Below, piece after piece: positions 4,459-48,774 of a stretch of DNA of 64,000 nucleotides (its first letter is position 1; each line of letters opens with the position of its first letter). Origin of the DNA: an uncultured delta proteobacterium (GTDB lineage: Bacteria; Myxococcota_A; Polyangia; Fen-1088). The DNA is taken from assembly GCA_963767925.1 (NCBI GenBank), contig CAVYGB010000008.1, positions 128,001 to 192,000 on the forward strand. The letters are read 5' to 3'. The notes beneath the pieces are model-generated. The model saw only the letters and a program-made list of their open reading frames with translations. It did no database searches and was not told the DNA's origin. The position numbers and the translations under genes are program-made.

Positions 4459-5732
4459 GGCGCCACCTCGGCGGGCAGGGCCCGGGCCAGGTCGGCGGCG
4501 GCCTCTTCCAGGTGGACCAGGCTCTGCACCCGGTCGAGCCGCGTGTCGAGGTAGCTGCGCAGGGCATCGACCAGCACGCTGGCGTCGCCCCGCCCGGCGC
4601 CGTAGCCGGCCTGGGCGGTCTCCAGGTTGCGGCCGGCGATGGGCAGCAGGTCCCGATCGATGATGTCGAAGGTGGCGCGCGCCGCCGCGAAGCGGGCGCC
4701 CGCGTCGCGGGCCTGGTAGGCCAGGCCGTTGCGCACCGACTGCACCGCGAGGCGATCGGCGGCCAGCGCGTGTTCGGCGGCGGCGACGGCGTCGCGGCGG
4801 CCCGCGCTCAGCCAGGGTAGGTTCATCATGACCATCAGCCCGTAGCCGTGGGGCGCGGCCATCATCGGCATGTACATGTAGTCGACCCCCAGGGTGACGG
4901 TCGGCCAGCGCCCCTCGCGCTGGACCAGCTCGAGGGTGGCCTCGCTGCGGGCCAGATCGGCGCCGGCGGCCACCAGCTCCGATCGTCCCCGTGCGGAACC
5001 CGCGTCGCCCGGCGGCGCGGCCGCGGGCGGCAGCTCGGCCGGGACGCCCAGGGGCGCCTCCAGCGGCCGGTTCATCAGCAGGTTCAAGCGGGCGGAGGCC
5101 GAGATGCGCTCCTGCTCGACGTGGGCCAGATCGCGGTGCAGGCGGGACAGCTCGAGGGTGAGGCGCAGGACGTCCTGCTGCGAGCGCTGCCCGGCCCGGT
5201 AGCTCGAGCGCGCCAGCTCGACCAGGCGCCCGGTCAGCTCGACGTGCTCCCGATGCAGGGCCACCTCCCGGTCGGCCCGGAAATATTCGGCGAACCCGCG
5301 CCGCACCTCCGCGGTGAGGTCCCGCCGCCGCGTCTCCGCCCCCGCCGCCGCGCGGACCGCCTCCTGATCGGCCGCCCGCGCCCGCGCGGATCGCGTCCCC
5401 GCTGCGGGCAGGGTCTGGCTCAGCCCCACCATGAGGGCGTTGCCCTCGCGCCAGGCCAGCGGCCGGCGCAGCGGCAGCCCCCACTGCTCGTATTTCACCT
5501 GGGCCTCCGGCAGCCGCCCGGCCAGCCGGGCCTGGGCGCGGGCGGCGGCGATGCGCGCCTCGGCCTCGGCCAGGTCGGGGTTGGCGCGCAGGACCAGCGG
5601 CAGGATCAGCTCCAGCCGGGCCTCGCGGGCCAGCGCCTCGCCGGTGGGATCGGCGGCGGCGACGCCGGGGAGCAGGGCGGTGATCAGCAGCAGGGCCGGG
5701 ATCACGAGACGGACGTCAGCGAACGTGGACAT
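4455..5732 (-). CDS. TolC/CusC family outer-membrane efflux protein
   Basis: Signal peptide, helical OEP-like repeats, Met-rich segment YMYMPMMAAPHGYGLMVMM; lies upstream of the cusB/cusA-like genes. Confidence 0.85.
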   Translation of the reverse strand: MSTFADVRLVIPALLLITALLPGVAAADPTGEALAREARLELILPLVLRANPDLAEAEARIAAARAQARLAGRLPEAQVKYEQWGLPLRRPLAWREGNALMVGLSQTLPAAGTRSARARAADQEAVRAAAGAETRRRDLTAEVRRGFAEYFRADREVALHREHVELTGRLVELARSSYRAGQRSQQDVLRLTLELSRLHRDLAHVEQERISASARLNLLMNRPLEAPLGVPAELPPAAAPPGDAGSARGRSELVAAGADLARSEATLELVQREGRWPTVTLGVDYMYMPMMAAPHGYGLMVMMNLPWLSAGRRDAVAAAEHALAADRLAVQSVRNGLAYQARDAGARFAAARATFDIIDRDLLPIAGRNLETAQAGYGAGRGDASVLVDALRSYLDTRLDRVQSLVHLEEAAADLARALPAEVAP

Positions 5733-5966
5733 GGCTCGGGTTCCTCGACGAGCGGGCAGGGAGACGGTGCGCGACGGCGCCGGCGCCCGCCCGGGGGGCA
5801 GGCACGCGACGATGGGCCGGCCAGCGGGCAGGACGCCGCGCGATCAGCCGGGGAGAGGGCAGCCGGCCCGGTCGAGCGACCGGGCGGCGAGCGCAGCGGG
5901 GTCAGCGGGACCCCGCGCACCCGTGGATCGACCGCGCCCGCAGGGCGGTCGGCCGACGGCGATCGC

Positions 5967-6389
5967 TCAGATCAGGAAGGCTTGCTTCTGCAGGACGAGG
6001 AGGCGGCCCCCGGCGGATCGCTCCCGATCGGGCGCGCGGACCGGGAGGGGCCGCAGCCGGGGGAAGGGATCGGGGACGGTGGCCACCGGCCGGGCCACCA
6101 GGGCGTCGACCACCGTGAGCTGGGCGGCCGCCTGCTTGCGGGGCAGGTCGCTGGGGGCCTTGTCGAAGTGGCTCTGCTCGACCTGGCAGCAGCTCAGGCT
6201 GGACAGGGTCGGGCCGGCGTGGCTCCGCTCGGCCGCCGCGCCGACCTTCTTCTTGGGGCAGCAGCAGGCGTCGCGGGCGACCCCGTCGGACCGGCAGCGC
6301 CAGCTCGCGAAGCTGGTCCCGGCGACGGCAAACAGCAGCACCGGCAGCAGCAGCGCCGCGGTCAGGATCTGTCTGGCCGTCCTCGCCAT
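5967..6389 (-). CDS. Small Cys-rich exported/membrane protein upstream of the metal efflux operon
   Basis: Hydrophobic N-terminus, CRSDGVARDACCCP and SCCQ, C-terminal ..LQKQAFLI; GGAGG RBS upstream of ATG 6389. Confidence 0.65.
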   Translation of the reverse strand: MARTARQILTAALLLPVLLFAVAGTSFASWRCRSDGVARDACCCPKKKVGAAAERSHAGPTLSSLSCCQVEQSHFDKAPSDLPRKQAAAQLTVVDALVARPVATVPDPFPRLRPLPVRAPDRERSAGGRLLVLQKQAFLI

Positions 6390-6459
6390 GGGTGCCTCCG
6401 AGCATGATTGGCGATCGCACCGGCTGTCAAGGCGCGCCGACCACACCCACCCCCCCCGG

Positions 6460-6491
6460 CGCGGAATCCGCACCCCGCTGCAGAAAGCGCA
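6460..6491 (+). promoter_or_regulatory. Tandem palindromic enhancer-binding-protein sites (YGCR-N5-CGCA x2)
   Basis: CGCGGAATCCGCA (6460-6472) and TGCAGAAAGCGCA (6479-6491), upstream of a sigma-54 promoter; similar pair at 38673-38706. Confidence 0.55.
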
Positions 6492-6533
6492 GCCCGGCGC
6501 GCCCCAAAGCCCCGGATCCGGCCGCCGCGCGCG

Positions 6534-6549
6534 CGGCACGGCCGGTGCA
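6534..6549 (+). promoter_or_regulatory. Sigma-54 (-24/-12) promoter of the MacAB-type operon
   Basis: CGGCACGGCCGGTGCA = GG-N10-GC with a GGCACG core, 25 nt before ATG 6575. Confidence 0.7.
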
Positions 6550-6574
6550 ATACCTCGCGGCAAAGAGACATCCC

Positions 6575-7933
6575 ATGAATGAAGCATTTGCCCCCCGCTG
6601 GAACCACGAACCGGAACCGTCCGCCGAGGAGGCCGCCGCGCCGCCGGAGCCCTTCCTCGAGGAGCCCGCCCGCCGCCGCTGGCGCTGGCCGCTGATCGCG
6701 ATCCTGGTGCTGGCCGCGGCCGGCGGCGGCGTCGCCACCTGGAAGTGGCAGGCCAAGCCGGTCCCGCCCAGCTTCGAGACCGCGCGCGTGGACCGCGGGC
6801 GCATCGCCGTGCAGGTCTCCGCCAGCGGCACCCTGTCGGGCCTGCGCACGGTCCTCGTCGGCAGCCAGGTCTCCGGTCGCATCGCCGAGCTGAACGCCGA
6901 CTTCAACGACACGGTGAAGAAGGGGCAGCTCCTGGCCCGTCTCGACACCCAGATCTTCAAGGCCGCCCTGGAGCAGTCCCGGGCCAGCTTCGTGGTGGCC
7001 AAGAGCAGCGTGGCCCGGGCCCAGGCCCAGGCCGCCGACGCCGAACGGCAGCTCGCCCGCCAGCAGAAGCTGGGCGAGGCGCAGCTCCTGGCCCCCGAGG
7101 TGGTCGAGAGCGCCACCACCAGCGCCGAGGTGGCGCGGGCCGCCCTGGCGGGGGCCCGGGCGCAGGCCCAGCAGTCGGCGGCGTCGTTGCGCCAGGCCGA
7201 GCTGAACCTGGCCATGACCGCCATCTACTCCCCCATCGACGGGGTGGTCATCTCGCGCAGCGTGGACGTGGGCCAGACGGTGGCCGCCTCCCTGCAGGCG
7301 CCGACCATCTTCACCCTCGCCGAGGACCTGCGCAAGATGCAGGTGGAGGCCCACGTCAGCGAGGCGGACGTGGCCAAGCTGACCGCCGGGATGCCGGTCA
7401 ACTTCACCGTCGACGCCTTCCCCGGCCGCACCTTCTCCGGCACGCTCCGCCAGGTCCGCAACGCCGCCGAGACGGTCCAGAACGTCGTCACCTACGACGC
7501 CATCGTCGACGTGGACAACCCCGACCTGCAGCTCCGGCCGGGGATGACCGCCAACGTGACCTTCGTGGTGGCCGAGCGGAAGGACGTCCTGCGCATCCCC
7601 AACGCCGCCCTCCGCTTCCGTCCCGGCGCCGCGACCGGCCGTTCCGCCCAGCCGTCCCGCGAGGGGGGCCGCACCGTGTTCGCCCTGCAGGGCACCACCT
7701 TGCAGCCCAAGCGGGTGCGGGTGGGCATCACCGACGGCAGCTTCACCGAGCTCGTCGAGGGGGACCTGGTCGACGGCCTGGCCCTGGTCACCGACATGGG
7801 CGGCACCACCCCCGCCGCCGGCACCCGCGGCACCGGGGGCGAGCGCCCGGGCATGGGGGCGGGCGGCCCGCCCGGACTGTCCCCCGTGAACACCCCGGGG
7901 CTGGGGGGCGGCGGCCGCCGGCGCGGCGGTTGA
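6575..7933 (+). CDS. MacA-like efflux periplasmic adaptor subunit
   Basis: TM anchor, VGSQVSGRI, IYSPIDGVVISRSVDVGQTVAASLQAP, LRPGMTANV. Confidence 0.9.
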   Translation: MNEAFAPRWNHEPEPSAEEAAAPPEPFLEEPARRRWRWPLIAILVLAAAGGGVATWKWQAKPVPPSFETARVDRGRIAVQVSASGTLSGLRTVLVGSQVSGRIAELNADFNDTVKKGQLLARLDTQIFKAALEQSRASFVVAKSSVARAQAQAADAERQLARQQKLGEAQLLAPEVVESATTSAEVARAALAGARAQAQQSAASLRQAELNLAMTAIYSPIDGVVISRSVDVGQTVAASLQAPTIFTLAEDLRKMQVEAHVSEADVAKLTAGMPVNFTVDAFPGRTFSGTLRQVRNAAETVQNVVTYDAIVDVDNPDLQLRPGMTANVTFVVAERKDVLRIPNAALRFRPGAATGRSAQPSREGGRTVFALQGTTLQPKRVRVGITDGSFTELVEGDLVDGLALVTDMGGTTPAAGTRGTGGERPGMGAGGPPGLSPVNTPGLGGGGRRRGG

Positions 7934-7980
7934 AGCGCGACCCTCGTCAGCAACCTCGACCCGGACAGGAGACCACCGCC

Positions 7981-22668: not shown

Positions 22669-23460
22669 CTACTTCTCGACGAAGGCGCGCTCGATGACGT
22701 ATTGGCCCTGGCCGTCGCTGCTCCCCTCCTCGAAGCCGCGGGGCTCGAGCAGGCTGACGAGGTCGCCGAGGGCCGAGGGGCTGCCGCAGATCATCACCCG
22801 GTCGTGCTCCGGCGCGAGCGGGGGCAGGCCCAGGTCGGCGCACATCTTGCCGTTCTCCACCAGGTTGGTGATGCGCCCCTGGTTGCGGAAGGGCTCGCGG
22901 GTGACGGTGGGGTAATAGAGGAGCTGCTGGGCGGCCGCGTCGCCGACCAGCTCGTGCCGGGCCAGCTCGCTCTCGATGTATTCGCGGTAGCCGAGGTCGC
23001 TGATGCGGCGGACGCCGTGGGCGACGATCACCTGCTCGTAGCGCTCGTAGGTCTCGGGATCGCGGATGATGCTCATGAACGGCGCCAGGCCCGTGCCGGT
23101 GGCGAACAGGTACAGGCGCTTGCCGGGCTGGAGGTTGTCGAGGAGCAGGGTGCCGGTTGGCTTGCGGCTGACCAGCACGGAGTGGCCGGGCGCGACGTGT
23201 TGCAGCCGGGAGGTGAGGGCGCCGTCAGCGACCTTGATGCTGAAGAACTCCAGGTGCTCGTCGTAGTTCGCGCTCACCAGGCTGTAGGCCCGCAGCAGCG
23301 GCCGGCCGTCGACCTCGAGGCCCATCATGACGAAGTGGCCGTTGCGGAAGCGGAACCCGGGGTTGCGGGTGGTCTTGAAGCTGAACAGCGAGTCGTTCCA
23401 GTGGTGCACACTGATGACGCGTTCTTCGTTGAAGGCCTGGCGGGGATTGGCGGTTGTCAC
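22669..23460 (-). CDS. fpr: Ferredoxin--NADP+ reductase (bacterial subclass I)
   Basis: VHHWNDSLFSF, RAYS, GALTSRL, TGTGLAPF, VTRE, MICGSP, terminal RAFVEK. Confidence 0.95.
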   Translation of the reverse strand: MTTANPRQAFNEERVISVHHWNDSLFSFKTTRNPGFRFRNGHFVMMGLEVDGRPLLRAYSLVSANYDEHLEFFSIKVADGALTSRLQHVAPGHSVLVSRKPTGTLLLDNLQPGKRLYLFATGTGLAPFMSIIRDPETYERYEQVIVAHGVRRISDLGYREYIESELARHELVGDAAAQQLLYYPTVTREPFRNQGRITNLVENGKMCADLGLPPLAPEHDRVMICGSPSALGDLVSLLEPRGFEEGSSDGQGQYVIERAFVEK

Positions 23461-35511: not shown

Positions 35512-37419
35512 TCAGGCCGTCTCGAAGTCGAGGTTTCGGGTGATGCGGGTGCCTTCCTGCTCGAAGGTCCCCAGGTAGTCGGAGATGCGGGCCTTGGCCT
35601 GGCCGAGATCGATCAGGCCGAGGTTGAGATTGAGCAGGTCGATGTACCAGGGCGCCTTGCGGGGCGAGGTGACGTAGCGGCGCACGATCTCGCGGGCGAT
35701 GGGCAGCGTCGTCGCCTTCGAGTCGTCGTGCACGTCGCGGTTCCCTGCGGCCAGCAGCTTGGCGTACTCCTGCTCGAGGAGTCGATCGAAGAGGGCGGCG
35801 CCGAAGAGGTCCCCCGCCTGGCTGCCGGTCCCGGCGTCGGCCTCGCTGAGGGGGGCGCCCTTGTGCAGCCACTCCCAGAGGATGGACAGGCGGATCTCTC
35901 CGGTGGCCATGTCCTCCATGAGGTAGAGGACGTCGTCCTGGCCGAAGAAGTCGGCCGGCTTCAGGGCGGCGGCCTGGAAGCCTTGCAGGAAGGCGTTGCC
36001 GTATTGCAGAGCCACGCTGAGCAGATCCCGGGCGCCCCGCACCGTGCGGGGGGCCGCCTCCAGCGCCACCAGGGCCTCGGCCTCGGCCTCGCCGTACCCG
36101 AGCGGCGGGAAGGAACGGCCGAGCTGGTTCTCCTGGCCAGCCTTCTCCCAGACCGGCCGCACGATGTGGACCATCTTCCAGTGGGCCACCCACTTGCCGC
36201 TGGCCCCCTCGCGCTGCTCGCGCTCGGCCCCCGCCACCGCCCGCTTCATCCCGCTCGCCACCCCCGCCGCCGACCCGACCGGGATGTTGGGCTCCATGCC
36301 CCCCTGCCACAACGCAAACCGCCCGTTGCGGTCGGGCGTGTTGACCGCCCGGCGCACCCGATCCTCGTAGTTGCGCATGTACCCGTAGGTCATCGTGATG
36401 GCGTCGATGTTGGGGTTCTGAAAGCCGGGATCCCAGGCCAGCGCGTCCGACACGCTGTTGATGTAGTCCCAGCGCCCGGTGTTGAAGCCCACGAAGTGCC
36501 GCCCCAGGGCCGCCCGGATCTCCATGAGCTGGAAGCTCGCCTCGAGCTGCTCGACCAGCACGTACACCTTCACCGTCCCCGCCGGCAGGCCCAGGTGCTG
36601 CTCGAGGGTGTTGAGCAGCCGGTTCCACAGCGCCGCCTCCTCGGCGGTCTGGATCTTCGGCAGGTAGAGCACGATCGAGGCGCCGGTGCTGCGCAGGCGC
36701 TCGTGGTTGTTGACCACGTAGAGGGCGGCGTCGACGATCGACGCCGAGAACCCCATGCCGTCGGCCCAGCGCACGTGGCGGTCGTCGAGGTGCAGGCCCC
36801 GGGCCCGGAAGATCACCGTCGTGAACCCGAGCTGGCTGCGGTGGTCGTCGATGATGGCTCGCCCCAGGAAGCCGCGGGCCCAGCCGTTCATCTCCTCGGC
36901 GACCTGGGCGGCGATCTTCAGGAAGCGGGGGTCCCGATCGATGGCCAGCTTCAGGTTGCGCTGGTTGTCGAGCGACATGGTCGACACCTGGCCCAGGGCG
37001 TCCTCCCCGTCGAACATCCAGCCGTCCGCCCCCGACAGCAGGGCGTAGGCCACGTTGCGCAGGCTCGTCTCGGTGGGCTGCCCGGGGCGGGTGGCCGGTC
37101 CGGTCCCCTGCACCCACTGCCGCTGCAGGTCGGCGGGGATCTCGCCGCCGGCGAACTGGCCCTCCCGGGCCTGCTGCACGGTGAGGTCGGTCCCGGCGAT
37201 GGTGGCGCCCGGATCCAGGAAGCCGAGGCGCTGGCGCCCGCGGGCCCGCCCCTGGCGCCGGTCGAGCCGGGCCTGCATCAGCGCCCGGCGGGTCTCATCG
37301 AGGGGGGCCAGCTCGGCCAGGGCGGCCATCGCCGCGGGCGTGTAGACGTCGGGGTAAGCGCGTTCGAGGCCGCCCCGGACCTGCAGGGCCAGCGACTCGC
37401 CCAGGATGGTGTTGCTCAT
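35512..37419 (-). CDS. Malate synthase
   Basis: [58 protein letters not shown]. Confidence 0.9.
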
Positions 37420-37484
37420 GATCTCCTCGGCGGCCGCGCGGGTCGTGCCGGCGGGCTGCGCGGTCGCCTGGGCCCAGTTTACCC

Positions 37485-38524
37485 TCAACCGGGCCGCTCG
37501 ACGCGCCCCGAGGCGTGGCGGGCGAAGCGCCCCTCCTCGCGCGGGTGGACCGGATCGTCGCTGGGCCAGGGCCAGCCACCGAACTGGGTGCGCTGGTAGT
37601 CGATCATCGCCTGCTGGATCTCGGCCCGCGTGTTCATCACGAAGGGCCCGTACTGGGCCACCGGCTCCTGGATCGGCCGCCCCTGCAGCAAGAGCAGCTC
37701 GCTCGGTCCCACGCTCCGGAGCGGCACCGGCAGGTGGGCGGCGAGCTCCGCACCCTGGGGCGCGGCCAGCACCTCGCCGGCCACGTGCAGGCGGTCGCCG
37801 CGGAAGAAGTACAGGCTGCGGTTGGTCCCAGGCTGGGCGGGGGGCAAGGTGAAGCGGGCGCCGGCCTCGAGGCGCAGGGTCCAGATGGCGACGTCGCTGT
37901 CGGGGCGGGCGGCCCAGGACCGGGGCGGCGGCGCGGGCGCCACCCGATCGCCGAGCCGTCCGGCCACCAGCGCCACCTCGGTGGCGCGCCCCTCGGCGTC
38001 GCGCTCGACCTGGCGGGGGATGGCCTCGTCCCACAACATCGAGAAGTGGGGCTCGGCCAGCTTGTCGGCCCGCGGGCAGGTTGAGCCAGATCTGGAACAG
38101 CTCGAGGGGGTTGTCCTGCTCGCGCTCGAGCAGGGGAAACATCTCGGCGTGCACGATCCCCTTGCCGGCGGTCAGCCACTGCACGTCGCCCCGCCCGAAG
38201 CGAGCGGCAGCCCCCAGCGAGTCCGAGTGGTCGATGCAGCCCGCGGCGCACGATGGTGACGGTCTCGAAGCCGCGGTGCGGGTGCTGGGGAAATCCGGGA
38301 ACCACCTGGCCGTGGTACATGCGCCAGCCCTCGCGCACGGCCGCCTCGCTGGCGAAGTCCTGTCCCAGGTCGCGCCCCGACAGCGAGGCCGCCGGCCCCA
38401 GCAGGTCGTTTCCGCGCGGGTAGGCGTCGTCGTGGTGCACGCAGAACAGGAACGGATCCGCCGTCTCCCAGGGAAAGCCGAGCGGGCGGATGCGAAGGAC
38501 GGGATTGGCGTGCGGGTCGGCCAC
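37485..38524 (-). CDS. Pirin family protein; frameshifts near 38237 and 38072
   Basis: [59 protein letters not shown] across frames. Confidence 0.88.
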
Positions 38525-38671
38525 GTCCTGTGAAACCTAGGAGACCGACCGGGCCCCCGCAACCCCGGCTCCGACGGGCGCCCGGTTGCGGACAGCGTGT
38601 CGCTCCTGGCCCGCCGTCGAGCCGATCGGGGTGGCTTCCCGACATGAAAGGCTGCCCGGTCGCGCCGCCGC

Positions 38672-38707
38672 CTGCGGATTTCGCAGGAGCCGCTGCGATT
38701 TTCGCAG
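38672..38707. promoter_or_regulatory. Tandem palindromic enhancer sites CTGCG-N5-CGCAG x2
   Basis: CTGCGGATTTCGCAG and CTGCGATTTTCGCAG, centres 21 bp apart, about 130 bp upstream of a sigma-54 promoter. Confidence 0.65.
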
Positions 38708-38834
38708 TCACCGCGCGGGCGAGAACCGCGCGGCAACGGGAGGGGCTCGAAGCGCTCGAAGCGCCCGCTGCGCTCGAACGTCAGGCGGCGGCCCCGCGGG
38801 GCCAGGGGGTGGGGACCGGCGCCGCGGGCGGGTT

Positions 38835-38850
38835 TGGTATCGTCTGTGCT
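38835..38850 (+). promoter_or_regulatory. Sigma-54 promoter of the HK/RR operon
   Basis: TGGTATCGTCTGTGCT = GG-N10-GC, 22 nt before ATG 38873. Confidence 0.6.
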
Positions 38851-38872
38851 TCGAGTCTCGCTTCGTGCACCC

Positions 38873-40177
<1,305 letters not shown>

Positions 40178-40192
40178 TCGGGGGATCGCTGC

Positions 40193-41548
40193 ATGTCGCG
40201 CATTCTGGTGGTCGACGACGAGGAAGGGATCCGGACCTTCGTGGCCGAGGCCCTCGAGGCCGAGGGCGCCGAGATCGAGAGCGCCGCCAGCGGCGACGAG
40301 GCGGCGGCGCTGCTCGACCGCCAGGGGTTCGACGTGGTGGTGACCGATCTCAAGATGCCGGGTCGGGATGGCATGTCTCTGCTGGCGAAGGTGCGGGCCG
40401 ACCAGCCGGAGACCCAGGTGATCCTGCTGACCGCCCACGGCACCGTCGAGACCGCGGTGCAGGCCATGAAGGCCGGCGCCTTCGATTACCTGCAAAAGCC
40501 CATCGGCAGCCCCGACGAGCTGCGGCTGGTGGTGGCCCGCGCGCTCGAGCGGCGGCAGCTTTTGGCTTCGCGGGAGGGCACCACCCGGGCCGAGGCCGAG
40601 GCCACTTTTCCGCTGACCTACGGCGATCCGGCCATGACTCCCATCAAGGCCGCGCTCGACAAGGTGGCCCGCACCGACGCCACCGTGCTGCTGCTGGGAG
40701 AGACCGGCACCGGCAAGGAGGTGGCGGCGCGGGCCCTGCACGCGGCCAGCGCGCGGGCCGGGCGCCCCTTCGTGGCGGTCAACTGCGCCGCGCTCAGCGA
40801 GTCGCTGCTGGAGAGCGAGCTGTTCGGCCACGAGAAGGGGGCCTTCACGGGGGCTCACGCCCAGCGCCGGGGCCGTCTCGAGCTGGCCGAGGGCGGGACC
40901 TTCTTTCTCGACGAGGTGGGCGAGCTGAAGCTCGATCTGCAGGCCAAGCTGCTGCGGGTCCTGCAGGAGCGGCGCTTCGAGCGGGTGGGCGGCACGCGCA
41001 CCCTGGCCGCCGACGTGCGCTGGGTGGCCGCCACCAACCGCGACCTGCGCGCGATGATCGAGGCGGGGACCTTCCGCGAGGACCTCTACCACCGGCTGGC
41101 CGTCTTCCCCATCCGCCTGCCGACCCTGCGCGAACGCCCGGGCGACATCTTGCCCCTGGCCGATCTGCTCCTGCGCCGGGCCGCCGCCGAGCTGGGGCGT
41201 CCGCCGCTGCGGCTCACCGAAGAGGCCCGGGCCCGGGTGCAGGCGGCTCCGCTGCGGGGAAACATCCGCGAGCTCAAGAACATGCTCGAGCGCGCCGCCA
41301 TCCTGGCCGACGGCGGGGTGGTGCAGGCCGAGCACATCTGGCTCGACCCCTCGGGGACCGTTGGCGCGCCGGCGCCCCCCTCGGGGCCACCCCTTCCCGA
41401 GGCCTCGGGGTCCCTCGACGACCTGGAGAAGGCCGCCATCCAGCGGGCGCTGGCCGAGACCGGGGGCAACCGGCGCCGGGCCGCCGAGCGGCTGGGCATC
41501 GGCCTGCGCACCTTGTACGAAAAGCTCAAGCGCTACGACCTGAGCTAG
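40193..41548 (+). CDS. Sigma-54-dependent response regulator (NtrC/AtoC family)
   Basis: VVDDE..DLKMP receiver, [14 protein letters not shown], Fis HTH. Confidence 0.95.
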
Positions 41549-42655: not shown

Positions 42656-43705
42656 CTAGACCACGTCCTCGCGTTTCACTCCGGGGAACTCGAGGATGAG
42701 GTCGCGGCCGTAGACGCCGGCGGGGGTCTGGAACCCGGCGGGCGCCTCTCCGGCGAGGGCCCGCTGGGCCAGGGCCACCGCGCTCAGGCGGGTGAGCTCG
42801 TACCCCTCGGGCACCACCAGCCGCGAGGTCACCTTCCTTCCGGCGGCGTCTGTCGCCTCTCCCCACACGAGGCTGCGACCCCGGCGGCGCGCCTCGGCCG
42901 ACGGGCCGGGAGCTCCGGCGCGGATGCGGGCCGCCAGCAGGCGCTGCACCCGCCGTAGCCGGAGCAGCGGCGCCATCAGCCGCGCCACCCGCACGGCGGC
43001 CCGGATCGCCCAGGGCACGCCGATGTAGACCTCGACGTTGGGGATCCCCGTGGTCACCGTCGCGGTGAACACGTCGCCCCAGGGGATGGCGATGGCCCGG
43101 GTGGCCCCCCGGCCGAAGTCCACCCGGATCGTCCGGTGGCCGAGCGGGACGGGGGTCAAGACCCCGTCCCGGCGGATCATGCCCTGGCTCCCGGCCGCCT
43201 CGAGCGTGCTGAGCGCCGTTCCCCGGGAGGCTTTGCCCCCCGGCTGGAACGCCAGGCGCAGGTGGGTGGCGCCGGGGAGCCGGTGGCGCAGGTGGGCCGC
43301 CAGGCAGTCCGTGGGCACGACGTCGAACCCCGCCCCGGGCAGCAACATCACGCCCGCCGCCCGCGCCTGGGCGTCCAGCCCGGCCAGGGCGGCGAAGACC
43401 GCCACCTCGCCGGTGATGTCGAGGTAGTGGGCCCGCAGGCGAAGGCAGGCCGCGGCCAGCGGACCCGCGGTCCGGGTGAAGGGCCCGGCACAGCTCAGCA
43501 GCACCGTGGCCCCGGCCAGCCCGGCGTCGACGGCCGCCGGGTCGTCCAGGGCGAAGGCCCGGGCCGGGACCCCCAGCTCGGCGGCCAGCGCCGCCAGCGG
43601 CTCGAGCCGCCGGCCCGCCAGCACCGGCCGCAGGCCACACTCCACCGCCCGCCGGGCGACCAGCTCACCCGAATAGCCATTGGCCCCGTAGATCAGCAAG
43701 CCCAT
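42656..43705 (-). CDS. Saccharopine dehydrogenase-like NAD(P)-binding oxidoreductase
   Basis: IYGANGYSG, LAGR, CAGPF, HYLDITGE, GFDVVPTDCL. Confidence 0.88.
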   Translation of the reverse strand: MGLLIYGANGYSGELVARRAVECGLRPVLAGRRLEPLAALAAELGVPARAFALDDPAAVDAGLAGATVLLSCAGPFTRTAGPLAAACLRLRAHYLDITGEVAVFAALAGLDAQARAAGVMLLPGAGFDVVPTDCLAAHLRHRLPGATHLRLAFQPGGKASRGTALSTLEAAGSQGMIRRDGVLTPVPLGHRTIRVDFGRGATRAIAIPWGDVFTATVTTGIPNVEVYIGVPWAIRAAVRVARLMAPLLRLRRVQRLLAARIRAGAPGPSAEARRRGRSLVWGEATDAAGRKVTSRLVVPEGYELTRLSAVALAQRALAGEAPAGFQTPAGVYGRDLILEFPGVKREDVV

Positions 43706-43737: not shown

Positions 43738-45324
43738 TCACCAGCCTGGCAAGCGCGAGCGGGCGGTGATGGTCGGATCGACGATCGCGCGCGGGAGCTC
43801 GATGGTGAAGGTCGAGCCCTTGCCCGACTCGCTCTCCACCTCGATCGAGCCGCCCATCCCCTCGACGATCTGGCGGGTGATCCAGAGCCCCAGGCCCAGC
43901 CCGCCGTAGTGCCGGCTGGACACCGCCCGCTCGAAGCGCCCGAAGATCCGCGGCTGGTCGACGGCGGCGATGCCGATCCCGCGATCCACGACCCGCAGGC
44001 GGGCCCGGGCCTCGGTCCCCACCACCTGCACGTGGATGGGCTGGTTGCCCCCGTATTTCACGGCGTTCGATAGCAGGTTGTTGAGCACCTGCTCGAGCCG
44101 GAGGCGATCCCAGGTGCCCGGCAGCTCGGCGGGCAGGTCGGTCGTGAACTCGGTCTCGTCGGCCGGCGCCGGGTTGACCTCGCCGGGCCGCCGGCCGGCC
44201 GCCTGCCGCCAGCGCTCGACCGTGCCCTGCACGAGGTCGACGAGGTCGAACTCGCTGCAGTCGAAGCGCAGGCGCCCCGAGTTGATGCGGGAGACGTCGA
44301 GCAGCAGCTCGACCAGCTCGGTCAGCCGCTGGGCCTGCTCGGCCACCGCGGCCGCGTTGCTGTCGAGCCGCCCGCTGCGCAGGGCGGGGCCGGGGGATCG
44401 CTTCAGGGTGCGGTGCAGGTTGTCGATCTGGAGCTGCAGCGCGGTCAAGGGGGTCTTGAGCTCGTGGGAGGCGATCGACAGGAACTCGTCGCGCACCTGC
44501 ACCGCGCGCCGCAGCTCGCTCTCGAGGGCCCGCCGCTCGGTGATGTCGATGCAGGAGCCGATGAAGCCGGCGAAGGTCCCGTCCGGCATGTAGCGGGGGG
44601 TGCCCCGGTCGAGGATCCAGCGGTGCGCCCCGTCCCGCCGCCGCAGGCGGTACTCCAGCTCGAAAACTCGCCGCTCGTTGAAGGCCTCGACGTAGGTGTC
44701 GAGGCAGCGTTGCAGGTCCTCGAAGTGCACCCCCTCGGCCCAGCCCACCCCCCACTCCTGTTCGAGCGTGCGGCCGGTAAAGTCGAGCCAGGTCTGGTTG
44801 AAGAAGGTGCACATCCCGTCCGGCTCGGACATCCAGAGCAGGACCGGAGCCGCGTCGGCCATGGTGCGGAAGCGCCCCTCGGTCTCCTTCACCTGCTCGG
44901 CAGCCCAGTGGGCCTCGCTGACGTCGCGGATGATGGCGATGCCGCCCTGGATCGCGCCGGCGTCGTCGCGCAGCGGCCCGTAGCTGCCATCGAAGAAGCC
45001 CCGGCGCAGGGTGCGGGAGACGACGAAGGGGCGGGCCCGCGACCAGACCTCCTCGCCCGCCAGCGCCCGCTGGTAATACTGGTCCTCGCCGATGTCGACG
45101 AGGAAGGGAAACAGGTCGAAGGCCCGCTGGCCCAGCACCTCGCTGGCCGGCAGCCCCGACAGGCGCTCCATGGCCGCGTTCCAGTAGGTGTAGCGGCACT
45201 CCCGATCGAAGGCGAGGATGCCGTCGGCGCTCTGGGCCAGCACGCGGGCGGCGAGCGGCAGGATGAGCGGGGTGGGGGGCGCGGCGGCCGGCGCGGGCAG
45301 GGCGCGCTGGCCGGCGGTGGTCAT
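43738..45324 (-). CDS. Cytoplasmic PAS-PAS sensor histidine kinase
   Basis: Two PAS/PAC domains (WNAAMERLSG; FFNQTWLDFTG..VHFED), ASHELKTPL, NLLSNAVKY, DRGIGI, GLGLGL; no TM; ATG overlaps the beta-subunit stop. Confidence 0.93.
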   Translation of the reverse strand: MTTAGQRALPAPAAAPPTPLILPLAARVLAQSADGILAFDRECRYTYWNAAMERLSGLPASEVLGQRAFDLFPFLVDIGEDQYYQRALAGEEVWSRARPFVVSRTLRRGFFDGSYGPLRDDAGAIQGGIAIIRDVSEAHWAAEQVKETEGRFRTMADAAPVLLWMSEPDGMCTFFNQTWLDFTGRTLEQEWGVGWAEGVHFEDLQRCLDTYVEAFNERRVFELEYRLRRRDGAHRWILDRGTPRYMPDGTFAGFIGSCIDITERRALESELRRAVQVRDEFLSIASHELKTPLTALQLQIDNLHRTLKRSPGPALRSGRLDSNAAAVAEQAQRLTELVELLLDVSRINSGRLRFDCSEFDLVDLVQGTVERWRQAAGRRPGEVNPAPADETEFTTDLPAELPGTWDRLRLEQVLNNLLSNAVKYGGNQPIHVQVVGTEARARLRVVDRGIGIAAVDQPRIFGRFERAVSSRHYGGLGLGLWITRQIVEGMGGSIEVESESGKGSTFTIELPRAIVDPTITARSRLPGW

Positions 45325-46298
45325 CGCGGCTCCCCCAGGCCGAGGTCCTCCAGCCAGGCGCGGACCGAGCCCTCGACGCGGGCGAGGGCGGGGGCGCCCG
45401 CCGGCCCCCAGAAGCTGGCCAGCGCCGCCGTCGCCTCGCGGGCCGGCGGCAGCCAGGTCCGCACCCAGCCCTGCAAGGTGGCCTGGTTGTCGGCCGACTC
45501 GGCCGCCACCAGCCGCACCAGCGCCGCTGCCCAGGCCCGGTGCCAGCGGCCGTCTTCGGCCAGCGAGGCGAGGATCTCCCCGAGGAAGAAGTCCTGCCGG
45601 TCGCGGGCCAGGGTGGCCAGCTCATCGAGGGCGAGCTGGTCGAGCAGGGGCTTGAGGCAGAGGCAGAGGGCCACGAACGATTCGCCCCAGTCGTAGCGGA
45701 CCAGGCCTTGTTCGAGCGTGCGCCGCAGGGGCTGCCAGACGGGAGCTTCCTGCCAGTCGCCGAGGGCGGCGCCGGCAAACCCGGGCCCGGTGTGGCGGAG
45801 CTGCCCCAGGCGGTGGGCGATGCGGTGGATCCGCCGCATCTCGTCCGCCGCCTGGAACATGGCCACCAGGGTGAGGCGCCCGCTGGGCGCCATCTGGCCG
45901 ACGTAGGCGGCCTGCATCTGCAACCCATGCCAGAAGTAACGCAGGGGCGACAGGAGGCCATCGAGCAACGCCCGCCACTCGGGCGCCAGCTTGCGATCGT
46001 GGTCGGTGCTCTCGATCGAGCTCATGAGCGCGTCGAGGTGCCGCTCGCGATCGGCCTGCAGAGAGGTGTAAGAGGAGTAGGTTGTCTCGCGGGGATCGGC
46101 GAAGCGTTCCCAGTCGGTGCAGCGCAGGGCCGCCTCTCGCTGGTACCGCTGATAAAAAGGTCCCAGCGGGACGTCGATCGCGAAGCCCCGCTCGACGTGA
46201 TAGAGCAGGCGCGAGCTGACGATGTCGTATTCGCTCGGCACCTTCCGGCGCTGCTCCAGGTGCGAATAGGTGCGCAGGGGCGGGATGGTCCGGCTCAC
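45321..46298 (-). CDS. tmoE: Aromatic/alkene monooxygenase hydroxylase beta subunit (TmoE-like)
   Basis: LRTYSHL..RKVPSEYDIVS, DWERFADP..TY, PLRY..HGLQM..YVGQMAPS, FQAADEMRRI, DWGESFVAL. Confidence 0.9.
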   Translation of the reverse strand: MSRTIPPLRTYSHLEQRRKVPSEYDIVSSRLLYHVERGFAIDVPLGPFYQRYQREAALRCTDWERFADPRETTYSSYTSLQADRERHLDALMSSIESTDHDRKLAPEWRALLDGLLSPLRYFWHGLQMQAAYVGQMAPSGRLTLVAMFQAADEMRRIHRIAHRLGQLRHTGPGFAGAALGDWQEAPVWQPLRRTLEQGLVRYDWGESFVALCLCLKPLLDQLALDELATLARDRQDFFLGEILASLAEDGRWHRAWAAALVRLVAAESADNQATLQGWVRTWLPPAREATAALASFWGPAGAPALARVEGSVRAWLEDLGLGEPR

Positions 46299-46594
46299 GT
46301 CCAGAAGGCCTCCTCCTGGGACATCGAGAGGGTCCCGGCGAAGGAGACCATCACCTCCTCGAGATCGGCCGGCAGGTGAAAGCTCTCGCCCAGGTGTCGC
46401 TCGACCGCCGAGCGGGTGAGGTGGCAGCGATATTTGACCAGCACGCGCAGGTAGGCCCCCCGATCGATGACCTCCACCTCGCCGTTCAGCTCGCGGATGG
46501 CGGCCAGCACCGCCTGGCTGCGGGGGCCGGCCGAGAGGACCGGCCCCACCACCGCCGTCGCCCCGCCTTCACCGGCTGGAGCTGTCCGCCCCAT
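46295..46594 (-). CDS. tmoD: MmoB/DmpM family effector protein (TmoD-like)
   Basis: VGPVL..AVLAAIRELN..IDRGAYLRV..LGESF..LEEVMVSFAG; true start may be GTG 46572 if one G is missing from a homopolymer. Confidence 0.88.
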   Translation of the reverse strand: MGRTAPAGEGGATAVVGPVLSAGPRSQAVLAAIRELNGEVEVIDRGAYLRVLVKYRCHLTRSAVERHLGESFHLPADLEEVMVSFAGTLSMSQEEAFWT

Positions 46595-46892
46595 CGACGT
46601 CGATCCAGATGGCATCGTCTTGCACCTTTACTTCGAAGCGCCGGAGGGCGACTTTCCGGGGGTTGAGGCCCGCGCCGGTGCGGGCGTCGTATTGCCACTC
46701 GTGGGCCGCGCAGGTCAGGGTGGTCCCCACCAGCCGCCCCCGGTGCAGCGGAAACGCCTGATGCGGGCAGCGGTCGGAGAAGGCGCTCACCTGGCCGAGG
46801 GTGTTGATCAGCACGACCGGCTGTTCCGCCACCGAGCAGGGGCGCATCTCTCCCTCCCACAGCTCGTCCAGGGCGCAGACCCGCCGGAGCAT
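46569..46892 (-). CDS. tmoC: Rieske [2Fe-2S] ferredoxin (TmoC-like)
   Basis: VCALDELWEGEM, CPH, CAAHEWQYDARTGAGLNP; ATG overlaps the tmoB stop (TGATG). Confidence 0.92.
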   Translation of the reverse strand: MLRRVCALDELWEGEMRPCSVAEQPVVLINTLGQVSAFSDRCPHQAFPLHRGRLVGTTLTCAAHEWQYDARTGAGLNPRKVALRRFEVKVQDDAIWIDVDGADSSSR

Positions 46893-47131
46893 CAGGGCGT
46901 CTCCTCCACGACGTCGATGCGGTCGAGCGGTCCGATCTCGGCCTCCTGGACGGTGGTGCCCGCCGGCAGGCGGCGCCCGCGATGGATCACAACCGGACGG
47001 GCCAGGGGAGCTACCCGTACGGAAGCGGCGGACTGGAGCTTGTGGCACAAGGTGGCGGTGTCGTCCTCGGGCTGGGCGAGCACGAGCATCCCGATCGTGT
47101 CGCCGGCCAGAAAGCCGTAAAGGGGGATCAC
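46892..47131 (-). CDS. tmoB: Monooxygenase gamma subunit (TmoB-like)
   Basis: 79 aa VIPLYGFLAGD..SVRVAP..TVQEAEIGPLDRIDV; GTG overlaps the alpha stop. Confidence 0.85.
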   Translation of the reverse strand: MIPLYGFLAGDTIGMLVLAQPEDDTATLCHKLQSAASVRVAPLARPVVIHRGRRLPAGTTVQEAEIGPLDRIDVVEETP

Positions 47132-48606
47132 CGCTCTCCCCGATCGATGAACCCGTAGCGCCCGCCGTGGGCGTCTTTGCCCCAGGAGTGGTAGTCGAGG
47201 CCGAAGTACTCCCGGAGCATCGCCACCAGGTTGGCGGGGGCCTCCCCCGCGAGCACCCGCCGCACGACGTCCTTGTGCCGCTTGTAGCGCTCGGGCTGGC
47301 TCTCGAAGATGACCCGGCAGGGCTCCGAGCAGAAGATGAGCCGCTGGCCCTCCCGGTCCACCACGACGGCGCTGTTGTGGCCCGGCCGCCCGCCGCACAG
47401 CACGAGCTGGCACAGGCAGCAGAAGGTCACGATGGCCGATCCGTGCACGGCGAAGTCGTTGCCCGGGTCGGCCTTCTGCCAGCGGGAGGTGATGCGCGAC
47501 CAGACCGGATCGAGCTCCGGCCAGGAGCCGGGGTACTTGCGGCGCAGCCAGGCCCGCTCCTCGGGGCCGGGCAACACGAAGTTGAACCAGACCGAGGCCC
47601 GGTAGGTGTAGGCGCTCGCGTAGACCATGTGGTGGTAGTAGTCGAGCGACTCGAGGAAGGTGTCCCAGTACCAGGGTTTGCGCAGGCCGTGCTGCTCGAG
47701 GGCGGGCACGAACTGGCCGATCACCCACTCCTGCATGAACTCCTTGAAGGACTGGGTGCGGGCGTGCAGGGGGGTCAGGTAGTCCATGCTGAAGCCGGTG
47801 ACCACCGCGAACATCAGCCAGCTCCGCCAGAACCACTTGTCGATGAGCTGCTGAGCGTACTCCCGATCGTGCTCCACCACGATGCGCAGCACCGCCGAGC
47901 CGATCTGGGCGTGGCGGGCCTCGTCGGTCTGGATGCTGGTCACCATCTTCTCGAACATCTTGTCGCCCGCGCCGTGGGCCATCGCCGCCAGCCCCACGAA
48001 CTGCAGGTTGGTGAACCCGGTCTCGAAGACGAAGTGGGTGGCGATGGCGAACTCGATGGCGTCGCAGCCGAGCAGCAGCTCGTCGGTGAGGTGACGGGCG
48101 GCGATCGCTACCCAGTTGTTGGAGTGGTAAAAGCGCCAGGTCCAGTCGAACTGGCGATCCCAGCCCACCAGCTCGTGCATGAGCAGCAGGGGGATCTGGG
48201 TGTGGCGGAACTCGTCGAGCGCGCCCAGCAGTGAGGTGCTGCGCCAGGCGCTGCTGCGCCCGAAGCGGGCGCCCCGCAGATTGCCGATCACCGCGGCGAA
48301 CTCGGCCAGGGGCAAGGTGGCGGCGTGCAGCTTCAGCCCGTTGACCCACTCGGGCGCCAGCTTGGCGTAGTCGTCGGGCTTGCCGAGGGCGTCGCGAACC
48401 GCGTAGACCGAGGCGTCCTTGTCGCGCTGCTTGATGACGTATTCGGCGTAGTGCGTCCGGTAAGGCTCCTGCCAGCCGGCCCAGTCGGCGGCGGGCAGCC
48501 AGGGCTGCCCGGACAGCGCCGCCGGGAAGACCTCCTCCTCGCGCACGTAGGAGAACCGCCAGTCGAGCTGACCGGCCAGATCGAGCCAGACGTCGCGTCC
48601 CAGCAC
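47128..48606 (-). CDS. tmoA: Soluble di-iron monooxygenase alpha subunit (TmoA/IsoA-like, group 1) with YHS domain
   Basis: Iron ligands LAEFAA, DEFRH, FETGFTN, DEARH; DKWFWRSW, MDYLTP, KPWYWD, FCSEPC. Confidence 0.93.
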   Translation of the reverse strand: MLGRDVWLDLAGQLDWRFSYVREEEVFPAALSGQPWLPAADWAGWQEPYRTHYAEYVIKQRDKDASVYAVRDALGKPDDYAKLAPEWVNGLKLHAATLPLAEFAAVIGNLRGARFGRSSAWRSTSLLGALDEFRHTQIPLLLMHELVGWDRQFDWTWRFYHSNNWVAIAARHLTDELLLGCDAIEFAIATHFVFETGFTNLQFVGLAAMAHGAGDKMFEKMVTSIQTDEARHAQIGSAVLRIVVEHDREYAQQLIDKWFWRSWLMFAVVTGFSMDYLTPLHARTQSFKEFMQEWVIGQFVPALEQHGLRKPWYWDTFLESLDYYHHMVYASAYTYRASVWFNFVLPGPEERAWLRRKYPGSWPELDPVWSRITSRWQKADPGNDFAVHGSAIVTFCCLCQLVLCGGRPGHNSAVVVDREGQRLIFCSEPCRVIFESQPERYKRHKDVVRRVLAGEAPANLVAMLREYFGLDYHSWGKDAHGGRYGFIDRGER

Positions 48607-48626
48607 CAGGACAAGCCCCCCGTCGC

Positions 48627-48632
48627 ATTATA
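48627..48632 (-). promoter_or_regulatory. Candidate sigma-70 -10 box for the monooxygenase operon
   Basis: Perfect TATAAT on the minus strand, 20 nt upstream of the tmoA GTG, in very GC-rich DNA; no clear -35. Confidence 0.45.
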
Positions 48633-48774
48633 CCCACGCGGATCCCCTCGCCGCTTCGATCCCGTCCGGCAAGGAGGAGTCCAGTCCGCACCGTACGGGG
48701 TGCTCACTCGTCGGGGTCGGGTGGTCTCCTGGTCCTCCTTTTGGTCTGCCTTGTGCCGTAGTAGAAGACCCCAC

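Follow-up and report, generated by a model that had tools for sequence, protein, structure and literature searches.

Soluble di-iron monooxygenases (SDIMOs) have been studied as catabolic and bioremediation enzymes, and their sensor kinases are viewed as separate regulators. One of these kinases, MmoS, which is encoded with soluble methane monooxygenase, is a large hybrid whose gene accompanies those of MmoQ and MmoR, and it is not known to be translationally coupled to the hydroxylase genes. In Methylococcus capsulatus MmoS binds FAD in its PAS-A domain and has been proposed as a redox sensor (PMC8534201). TmoS/TmoT controls the toluene-4-monooxygenase pathway and TodS binds toluene in a PAS domain (PMC4861429, PMC8534201 for both), TodS being a double kinase of seven domains that includes a receiver and has its DNA-binding partner next to it (PMC4321377). 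The locus dealt with here lies at 43738-48606 of a 64,000-nucleotide stretch of DNA from an uncultured delta proteobacterium (assembly GCA_963767925.1, contig CAVYGB010000008.1, positions 128,001 to 192,000), the whole of which is called the window, and it has a PAS histidine kinase gene inside a toluene monooxygenase (TMO)-type operon at the place where the TmoF reductase gene stands in the described system. Its parts are known, a TMO-type monooxygenase and a PAS sensor kinase, and what is new is their union in one conserved operon unit without a reductase, which recurs in every orthologous locus examined.

Module and described relatives

Six head-to-tail genes occupy the minus strand, at about 70% G+C:

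47128-48606, minus strand: alpha, the TmoA-type hydroxylase subunit (492 residues; Pfam Phenol_Hydrox 201 bits, and a weak YHS match)
46892-47131, minus strand: gamma, the TmoB-type hydroxylase subunit (79 residues; Pfam TmoB 36 bits)
46569-46892, minus strand: Rieske [2Fe-2S] ferredoxin of the TmoC type (107 residues; Pfam Rieske 63 bits; CPH...CAAH ligands in the translation)
46295-46615, minus strand: effector or coupling protein, TmoD, of the MmoB/DmpM family (106 residues or shorter; Pfam MmoB_DmpM 63 bits over residues 23-105)
45321-46298, minus strand: beta, the TmoE-type hydroxylase subunit (325 residues; Pfam Phenol_Hydrox 195 bits)
43738-45324, minus strand: soluble PAS-PAS-HisKA-HATPase histidine kinase (528 residues; Pfam HisKA 46 bits, HATPase_c 102 bits)

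Reading of the junctions gives a GTGA overlap between alpha and gamma, TGATG between gamma and the Rieske gene, GTGA between effector and beta, and ATGA at 45321-45324, where the kinase ATG overlaps the beta stop; the Rieske and effector genes overlap by 47 nt, or by 26 nt if the effector starts at its second ATG. A first-pass annotation of the window, made from the letters alone, had proposed this order and these overlaps, and both are borne out by Pfam and by the sequence, as is its statement, by Pfam and by TmoF-type queries, that no Fer2-FNR reductase, ring-cleavage or iso-type gene adjoins the operon. NCBIfam returned no equivalog for any of the hydroxylase components. In five loci of the clade (L031, L032, L049, L060 and L062; L, G and C numbers are our handles for loci, genomes and contigs) the Rieske and effector genes form one open reading frame (ORF) of about 200 residues, and the translation of L031:8431-9042 holds both parts in a single frame, that is, a Rieske-effector fusion protein.

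TmoABCDEF of Pseudomonas mendocina KR1 and the toluene/o-xylene monooxygenase (3dhg, 2inc) have the same five proteins in the same order. The module differs from TmoABCDEF in having the kinase gene where the TmoF reductase gene stands and in having no catabolic genes nearby, and its alpha belongs to a clade of its own and shares 41-44% identity with alphas from named Pseudomonas, Burkholderia and Xanthobacter strains. With TodS/TodT and TmoS/TmoT it shares a cytoplasmic PAS histidine kinase encoded beside an aromatic-type oxygenase operon; however, the module kinase is PAS-PAS-HisKA-HATPase only, with one transmitter in place of the seven-domain architecture, and it has no fixed partner, there being no cognate DNA-binding regulator adjacent to it in the window. 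When the PAS region was compared with the sequences of solved structures no match to TodS PAS1 was found at E <= 0.001. As with MmoS, the module kinase has tandem PAS domains and is encoded in linkage with a soluble di-iron monooxygenase, and the marginal match to MmoS (3ewk, E 7.6e-4) aligned the module PAS-A with chain residues 119-183, which is the second, non-FAD PAS of MmoS.

Two outgroup loci are instructive for comparison. In a Binatia metagenome-assembled genome (MAG), L099:13330-16526, a TMO-type set in the order alpha, beta, Rieske, effector is followed directly by a PAS-HisKA-HATPase kinase (603 residues) and an NtrC-type sigma-54 regulator (453 residues), and no TmoF-type reductase is nearby. 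This locus resembles the module in joining a TMO-family enzyme that lacks an adjacent reductase to a PAS histidine kinase directly after it, but the gene order differs, the PAS of its kinase is unrelated (27-28% identity, in the transmitter only) and a canonical sigma-54 regulator follows. Here a member of the enzyme family has been paired with a two-component system independently. The nearest outgroup, L066:13402-15039 from a Mycobacteriales MAG of the sister group (50% alpha identity), has its operon followed by a PucR-type regulator (GGDEF_2 plus HTH_30) and has neither reductase nor kinase.

Occurrence of the kinase linkage

The genome to which the window belongs comprises 9.3 Mb in 13 contigs and is about 84% complete, and its close relatives are labelled Myxococcota or Polyangia MAGs. 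Near full-length orthologous alphas (65-84% identity) were found in 13 of 61 related genomes, and in 13/13 of these loci alpha is followed in the same order by gamma, Rieske, effector, beta and a kinase orthologue, the last being 50-75% identical to that of the window where complete. A scan of public genomes gave 24 loci with an alpha identity of at least 65%, with the kinase directly after beta in all 21 that extend past beta and the remaining three cut by contig ends. A sample of 401 genomes of the class (genome G369, flagged as unpublished, enters denominators only) contained 34 with a clade alpha, near full length in 29 and partial or fragmented in five. All 34 hold an orthologous PAS-B domain of the kinase at 62% identity or more, in 33 cases on the alpha contig and in G028 split over two contigs, and two further genomes of the class have a PAS-B of 78-79% identity at a contig edge, with alpha not found. 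The clade kinase occurs in none of 55 outgroup loci (alpha identity at most 50%).

A maximum-likelihood tree of 90 alphas unites all 33 kinase-linked sequences in a single clade, with a Shimodaira-Hasegawa-like approximate likelihood ratio (SH-aLRT) support of 100 and a stem of 0.48, and two Mycobacteriales alphas, which have neither kinase nor reductase beside them, are sister to it. An alpha tree had been proposed by the first-pass annotation to see whether tmoABCDE plus kinase without tmoF is conserved in one clade, and the refuting case that it named, that close homologues carry tmoF and the adjacency is unique to this contig or misassembled, is excluded by the kinase-after-beta counts in both sets of loci. 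With start codons chosen by a heuristic, 26 of 27 other loci have a kinase ORF that begins no later than the beta stop. The arrangement recurs far beyond chance, in every orthologous locus examined, and on the evidence of order and overlap the PAS kinase appears to be permanently taken into the operon and translationally coupled to the beta gene.

L057/L149 (G196:C35) is a rearranged module, with an effector-beta-kinase block upstream of alpha-gamma-Rieske on the same strand. L148 (G020:C89:38000-50000, about 4882-7965) is a decayed module in which alpha residues 2-132 stand beside a truncated kinase and the genes from gamma to beta are deleted; the truncated kinase keeps its PAS-B (80% identity), and an upstream receiver-kinase hybrid is also kept. 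Two module genomes have a second, paralogous TMO-type cluster (L039 in G011:C21, L040 in G001:C707) of 41-44% alpha identity and without the PAS-B kinase, and that of L039 has a double kinase-receiver hybrid, a single receiver and a DJ-1/PfpI protein upstream. The clade alphas all come from MAGs. Database proteins matching alpha at E <= 1e-150 number 827 distinct sequences, and the best 120 of these are 67-85% identical and, where named, are called 'toluene monooxygenase system protein A', 'YHS domain-containing protein' or 'toluene monooxygenase'.

No description of the kinase-linked clade was found in full-text literature searches or in passages of the 2025 SDIMO review (PMC11825192). The uncharacterised subgroups A and B of that review list 'Planctomycetota' among their sources (PMC11825192), and since one clade member, L062, is so labelled, clade sequences may already sit in the review's tree, unremarked and under other phylum labels.

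Electron supply

The Fer2-FNR reductase that follows beta in canonical relatives was identified in L107, L082, L106 and L070, and the four TmoF-type queries taken from these found no match in any clade locus. In the window's genome the same queries met one region only, at 27-34% identity, covering the FAD/NAD part and no ferredoxin domain, and the L082 reductase gave only partial matches of 25-32% in five other module genomes, none of them over the ferredoxin domain; in all six genomes the matches start at residue 81 of the query or later. The clade loci encode no dedicated TmoF-type reductase. For the organism as a whole the genome search suggested by the first-pass annotation is less decisive, for although it gave weak FAD/NAD-part matches only, a missing TmoF in a genome about 84% complete is not proof of absence.

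A weakly scoring FNR-like flavoreductase ORF lies about 20 kb away in the window, at 22669-23460 (FAD_binding_6 27 bits, NAD_binding_1 28 bits, no ferredoxin domain). The sole Reductase_C-type ferredoxin reductase of the window's genome is a Rieske-Pyr_redox_2 fusion on another contig, a single protein of 528 residues at L120:151-1737 (G000:C13:205971-207557), and this Rieske-Pyr_redox_2/Reductase_C fusion is present in 27 of 61 related genomes, namely in 14/16 module genomes against 13/45 others, or within the family in 13/14 against 11/23. As a dedicated partner the fusion was rejected, being spread beyond the module and absent from the 97%-complete module genome G055. Supply of a reductase in trans would be plausible, because the tmoABCDE genes were reportedly shown to work in E. 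coli at a time when tmoF had yet to be discovered.

Active site and enzyme class

The best solved relative of alpha is T4moA (3dhg; E 6.5e-121, aligned over residues 4-481), and alpha E102, E132, H135, E195, E229 and H232 align with T4moA E104, E134, H137, E197, E231 and H234. These six di-iron ligands are invariant across 29 clade alphas, and the equivalents of active site Thr201, Asn202 and Gln228 are kept. The pocket is changed relative to T4moA at three positions, Q141 to P, F176 to T or V and L192 to T, and these changes suggest a substrate other than toluene without identifying it. Towards the C-terminus alpha has a Cys4 motif (C396, C399, C426 and C430, as CxxC...CxxxC; residues 396-430, window 47317-47421) coincident with the weak YHS match, and this is present in 33/33 clade alphas and 19/57 other alphas and is not found in T4moA; it may be a structural metal site.

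For membership of an SDIMO group the cut-off is 35% alpha identity, and the group 1 order is alpha, gamma, ferredoxin, coupling protein, beta (PMC11825192). At 39-50% identity to 55 outgroup alphas, including those of named Pseudomonas, Burkholderia, Xanthobacter and Mycobacterium strains, the module alpha lies above the cut-off, and it shows both Glu...Glu-x-x-His motifs and the gene order of group 1, the four-component TMO type, but the sixth gene of that group, encoding an NADH oxidoreductase with a plant-type ferredoxin and an FNR-type domain (TmoF), is replaced after beta by the kinase gene. Judged by its sequence the module is an intact TMO-type di-iron hydroxylase set of a distinct clade, found mostly in Myxococcota MAGs.

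Sensor kinase

Two PAS domains precede the transmitter:

44905-45252, minus strand: PAS-A domain of the kinase (residues about 25-140; variable)
44530-44886, minus strand: PAS-B, the second PAS domain (residues 147-265; more conserved than any other part of the module)

No part of the kinase is hydrophobic in the manner of a membrane span (peak 19-residue hydropathy 1.42), and the alignment shows the boxes of a HisKA-class enzyme, SHELKTPL (the H-box), NAVKYG, DRGIGI, FGRFER and GGLGLGL. Alignment of 29 kinases, with mean pairwise identities computed over the 24 loci that have all six genes, gave 0.70 for PAS-B and 0.67 for alpha, followed by effector 0.54, Rieske 0.47, beta 0.45, gamma 0.44, HATPase 0.43, HisKA 0.37 and PAS-A 0.32. 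PAS-A is absent or unalignable in L038, L058 and L065, and the transmitter is of three H-box types across the clade, one with an HHRVKNNLQ motif, so that transmitters have been exchanged while PAS-B was kept; the L057 kinase has an added C-terminal receiver and reaches 703 residues. The pairwise identities of the kinase parts correlate with the alpha identities to much the same degree as do those of beta (rho 0.50-0.54, and 0.61 for beta), and a common origin of the linked PAS-B domains was not rejected by the approximately unbiased test (p-AU 0.67). The next-best PAS in the window's genome is at most 36% identical to PAS-B, and small PAS kinases of other Polyangia genomes, in unrelated contexts, have PAS domains 51-64% identical to it. 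An AlphaFold2 model of PAS-B has a generic PAS fold with a predicted local distance difference test (pLDDT) score of 88. PAS-B lacks the LOV cysteine motif.

Signalling surroundings and promoter

Genes flanking 24 clade loci were scanned with Pfam, and receivers were tallied over 25 loci, the window included. A receiver domain is present on the first neighbour or on the kinase itself in 16 of the 25, in at least eight architectures. Single receivers stand directly after the kinase in L042, L046 and L062 and directly before alpha in L052 and, as a divergent gene, L050; the neighbour is a GAF-receiver-GGDEF protein in L031, L032 and L049 and a receiver-EAL protein in L047; a receiver-kinase hybrid lies directly upstream of alpha in L035, L046, L047, L051 and L058, other hybrid neighbours occur in L037, L043 and L059, and in L057 the receiver is fused to the kinase. 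Some of the upstream genes are closely set, with the alpha start overlapping the stop of the upstream gene as TGATG in L048 (where that gene is known only as a tblastn kinase match) and L051, and with alpha and the upstream hybrid gene abutting in L035. The stand-alone receivers beside the modules of L030, L042, L050 and L052 are 33-50% alike. As background, the window's genome has 150 to 306 receiver domains in its 9.3 Mb.

The 24 other loci have no conserved DNA-binding regulator next to the kinase, and no reductase, ring-cleavage or other catabolic genes were found by Pfam in the flanks of the 24 clade loci. A search of the window's genome for ring-cleavage genes, also suggested by the first-pass annotation, agreed with its view, giving one weak intradiol-dioxygenase match only, 2.6 Mb away, and for catechol 2,3-dioxygenase nothing above the family cut-off. 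Its claim that no response regulator or XylR-type activator is adjacent holds for the immediate neighbours and not for the wider surroundings, in which a two-component pair stands two genes away from the kinase:

40193-41548, plus strand: NtrC-type sigma-54 response regulator (Pfam; 2.2 kb past the kinase stop)
38834-40177, plus strand: histidine kinase of the same pair (Pfam)

This pair (38834-41548) is a candidate downstream partner, and L032, L033, L046 and L047 likewise have an NtrC-type regulator no more than about 5 kb from the module.

Upstream of the operon lies a spacer:

48607-48774, no strand: divergent intergenic region between alpha and a phosphodiesterase gene (168 bp)

It contains a perfect TATAAT on the minus strand at 48627-48632, about 20 nt before the alpha GTG, and -10-like boxes stand 15-25 nt before the alpha start in many orthologous loci. 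A consensus promoter scan of the window gave no full -35/-10 site. For sigma-54 the -24/-12 elements had no match in the intergenic region of the window, and upstream of alpha in 33 loci none scored better than shuffled sequence.

Interpretation

That the whole clade keeps this arrangement suggests a role for the enzyme in supplying a signalling circuit, as opposed to a growth pathway. The reading that we favour, with a probability of roughly 0.5, is that of a working hydroxylase using a non-dedicated reductase, with an attached PAS kinase that relays a reaction-linked cue to lineage-specific and often non-transcriptional receivers. The hydroxylase would turn over with electrons passed to its Rieske ferredoxin by a non-dedicated reductase encoded elsewhere, and would oxidise a hydrophobic compound. 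The kinase would read a small molecule or a redox cue tied to that reaction, chiefly through the highly conserved PAS-B, and would phosphorylate receivers that differ between lineages, be they stand-alone, receiver-GGDEF, receiver-EAL, hybrid kinases or perhaps NtrC-type activators. Instead of serving a carbon-source pathway, oxidation of the compound would thereby be tied to signalling that acts through cyclic di-GMP (c-di-GMP), on behaviour and on transcription. A more specific version, held only tentatively, makes the module an 'enzymatic chemoreceptor' that uses a whole multicomponent oxygenase, in which the monooxygenase would oxidise a hydrophobic cue and the PAS kinase would read the product, or enzyme turnover or redox state, and set c-di-GMP and behaviour via the lineage-specific receivers; the cue might be environmental or derived from prey or plants, such as an aromatic, indole-like or alkene volatile.

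Were it so that the enzyme feeds signalling, the known roles of the enzyme family would widen from metabolism to sensing, there would be a testable entry into hydrocarbon or volatile perception by uncultured soil myxobacteria, and surveys that equate 'tmoA' counts with biodegradation potential would need a warning. Across the whole clade the kinase is fixed inside the enzyme operon, the reductase gene has been dropped and the unit lies among c-di-GMP and receiver genes. Even on a plainer reading the clade stands as a TMO subgroup in its own right, uncharacterised and with a changed active-site pocket.

The signalling proposal was already that of the first-pass annotation, and it stands in part: the lack of catabolic genes and the loci rich in receiver, GGDEF and EAL domains support it, and several observations weigh against it. 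Loss of the local reductase is common in uncharacterised relatives and not special to the clade, since 28 of 55 outgroup TMO-type loci, including the sister Mycobacteriales loci and 13 Binatia loci, have no nearby reductase, 25 having a TmoF-type gene and two being cut by contig ends. The PAS-B domain is less particular than its conservation would imply. Nearly all of its invariant residues are equally fixed in 14 paralogous PAS kinases encoded away from any monooxygenase, and so the conservation seems partly a property of the PAS subfamily and gives no pointer to an enzyme-specific ligand; only four positions set the linked domains apart from the 14 paralogues, too few to argue for a special pocket, and Foldseek with the PAS-B model matched LOV, ARNT and other PAS domains alike, with no ligand or cofactor signature. 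No receiver gene is conserved in place and none stands directly beside the module in the window, and when an ortholog of the L030, L042, L050 and L052 receivers was sought in the window's genome several paralogues scored equally and none could be named. The loci are moreover related and not independent, so that 16/25 overstates the number of independent events, and the Binatia locus L099, with its enzyme followed by PAS kinase and NtrC regulator, has the layout of an ordinary operon and its regulator.

In the main rival reading, which we regard as possible if rather doubtful, the oxygenase is an inducible one of the ordinary sort, used for detoxification or co-metabolism, and the operon brings its own sensor for the substrate. 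The kinase would bind a hydrocarbon as TodS and TmoS do and switch the operon on via a DNA-binding regulator encoded elsewhere, for instance the NtrC-type one 2.2 kb away, with the reductase supplied in trans and the receiver-rich surroundings reflecting the general abundance of two-component systems in myxobacteria. There are well-known cases of a sensor kinase encoded next to an aromatic oxygenase operon (TodS/TodT and TmoS/TmoT; PMC4861429, PMC8534201), and the Binatia operon with its kinase and NtrC regulator, the NtrC-type regulators within about 5 kb in the window and four other loci, the frequency of reductase-less operons in the family and the 150 or more receiver domains of the window's genome all fit it. 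However, no sigma-54 promoter precedes alpha in 33 loci, -10-like sigma-70 boxes being found instead, and no DNA-binding regulator is conserved beside the module. Where receivers adjoin the module (16 of 25 loci) they stand alone or have a GGDEF, EAL or kinase output, no locus has downstream catabolic genes, and a kinase of 528 residues with a single transmitter is unlike TodS/TmoS in architecture.

Coupling at the level of the proteins themselves we consider unlikely. Here the PAS would dock on the hydroxylase, the Rieske protein or the effector and report redox or turnover (flux, O2 or reductant), the kinase being an accessory component of the enzyme complex encoded in the reductase's operon position. 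The beta/kinase start-stop overlap in the window and 26/27 other loci, the absence of the reductase and a PAS-B that equals the catalytic subunit in conservation, alongside exchanged transmitters, speak for such coupling, but PAS-B residues common to kinases with no nearby monooxygenase point to a generic cofactor or ligand and not to an enzyme-specific interface, and the Rieske, effector and beta proteins are only 45-54% conserved. A last alternative, that the genes are neighbours by chance, through misassembly or as a decaying remnant and do not function together, for which the fragmented or truncated copies in G020, G362 and G391 and the origin of all members from MAGs might be cited, has a negligible probability and is refuted by recurrence, the same order being present on independent contigs in many assemblies and several families, with catalytic residues and kinase boxes all intact and 827 distinct database proteins matching alpha at the threshold given above.

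Flanking genes

Two further genes border the module in the window:

from 48775, plus strand: type I phosphodiesterase/pyrophosphatase gene, divergent and upstream (Pfam)
42656-43705, minus strand: saccharopine-dehydrogenase-like NAD(P)-binding protein (Sacchrp_dh_NADP 39 bits; 32 nt past the kinase stop)

The saccharopine-dehydrogenase-like gene is possibly co-transcribed with the kinase; it is near the module only in a same-genus genome and is not a conserved module part. Further along, the ORF at 35512-39093 on the minus strand matches both Pirin (residues 284-337) and malate synthase (residues 759-1119), and it is probably two genes, or else one gene with a spurious N-terminal extension of the sort common in high-GC DNA.

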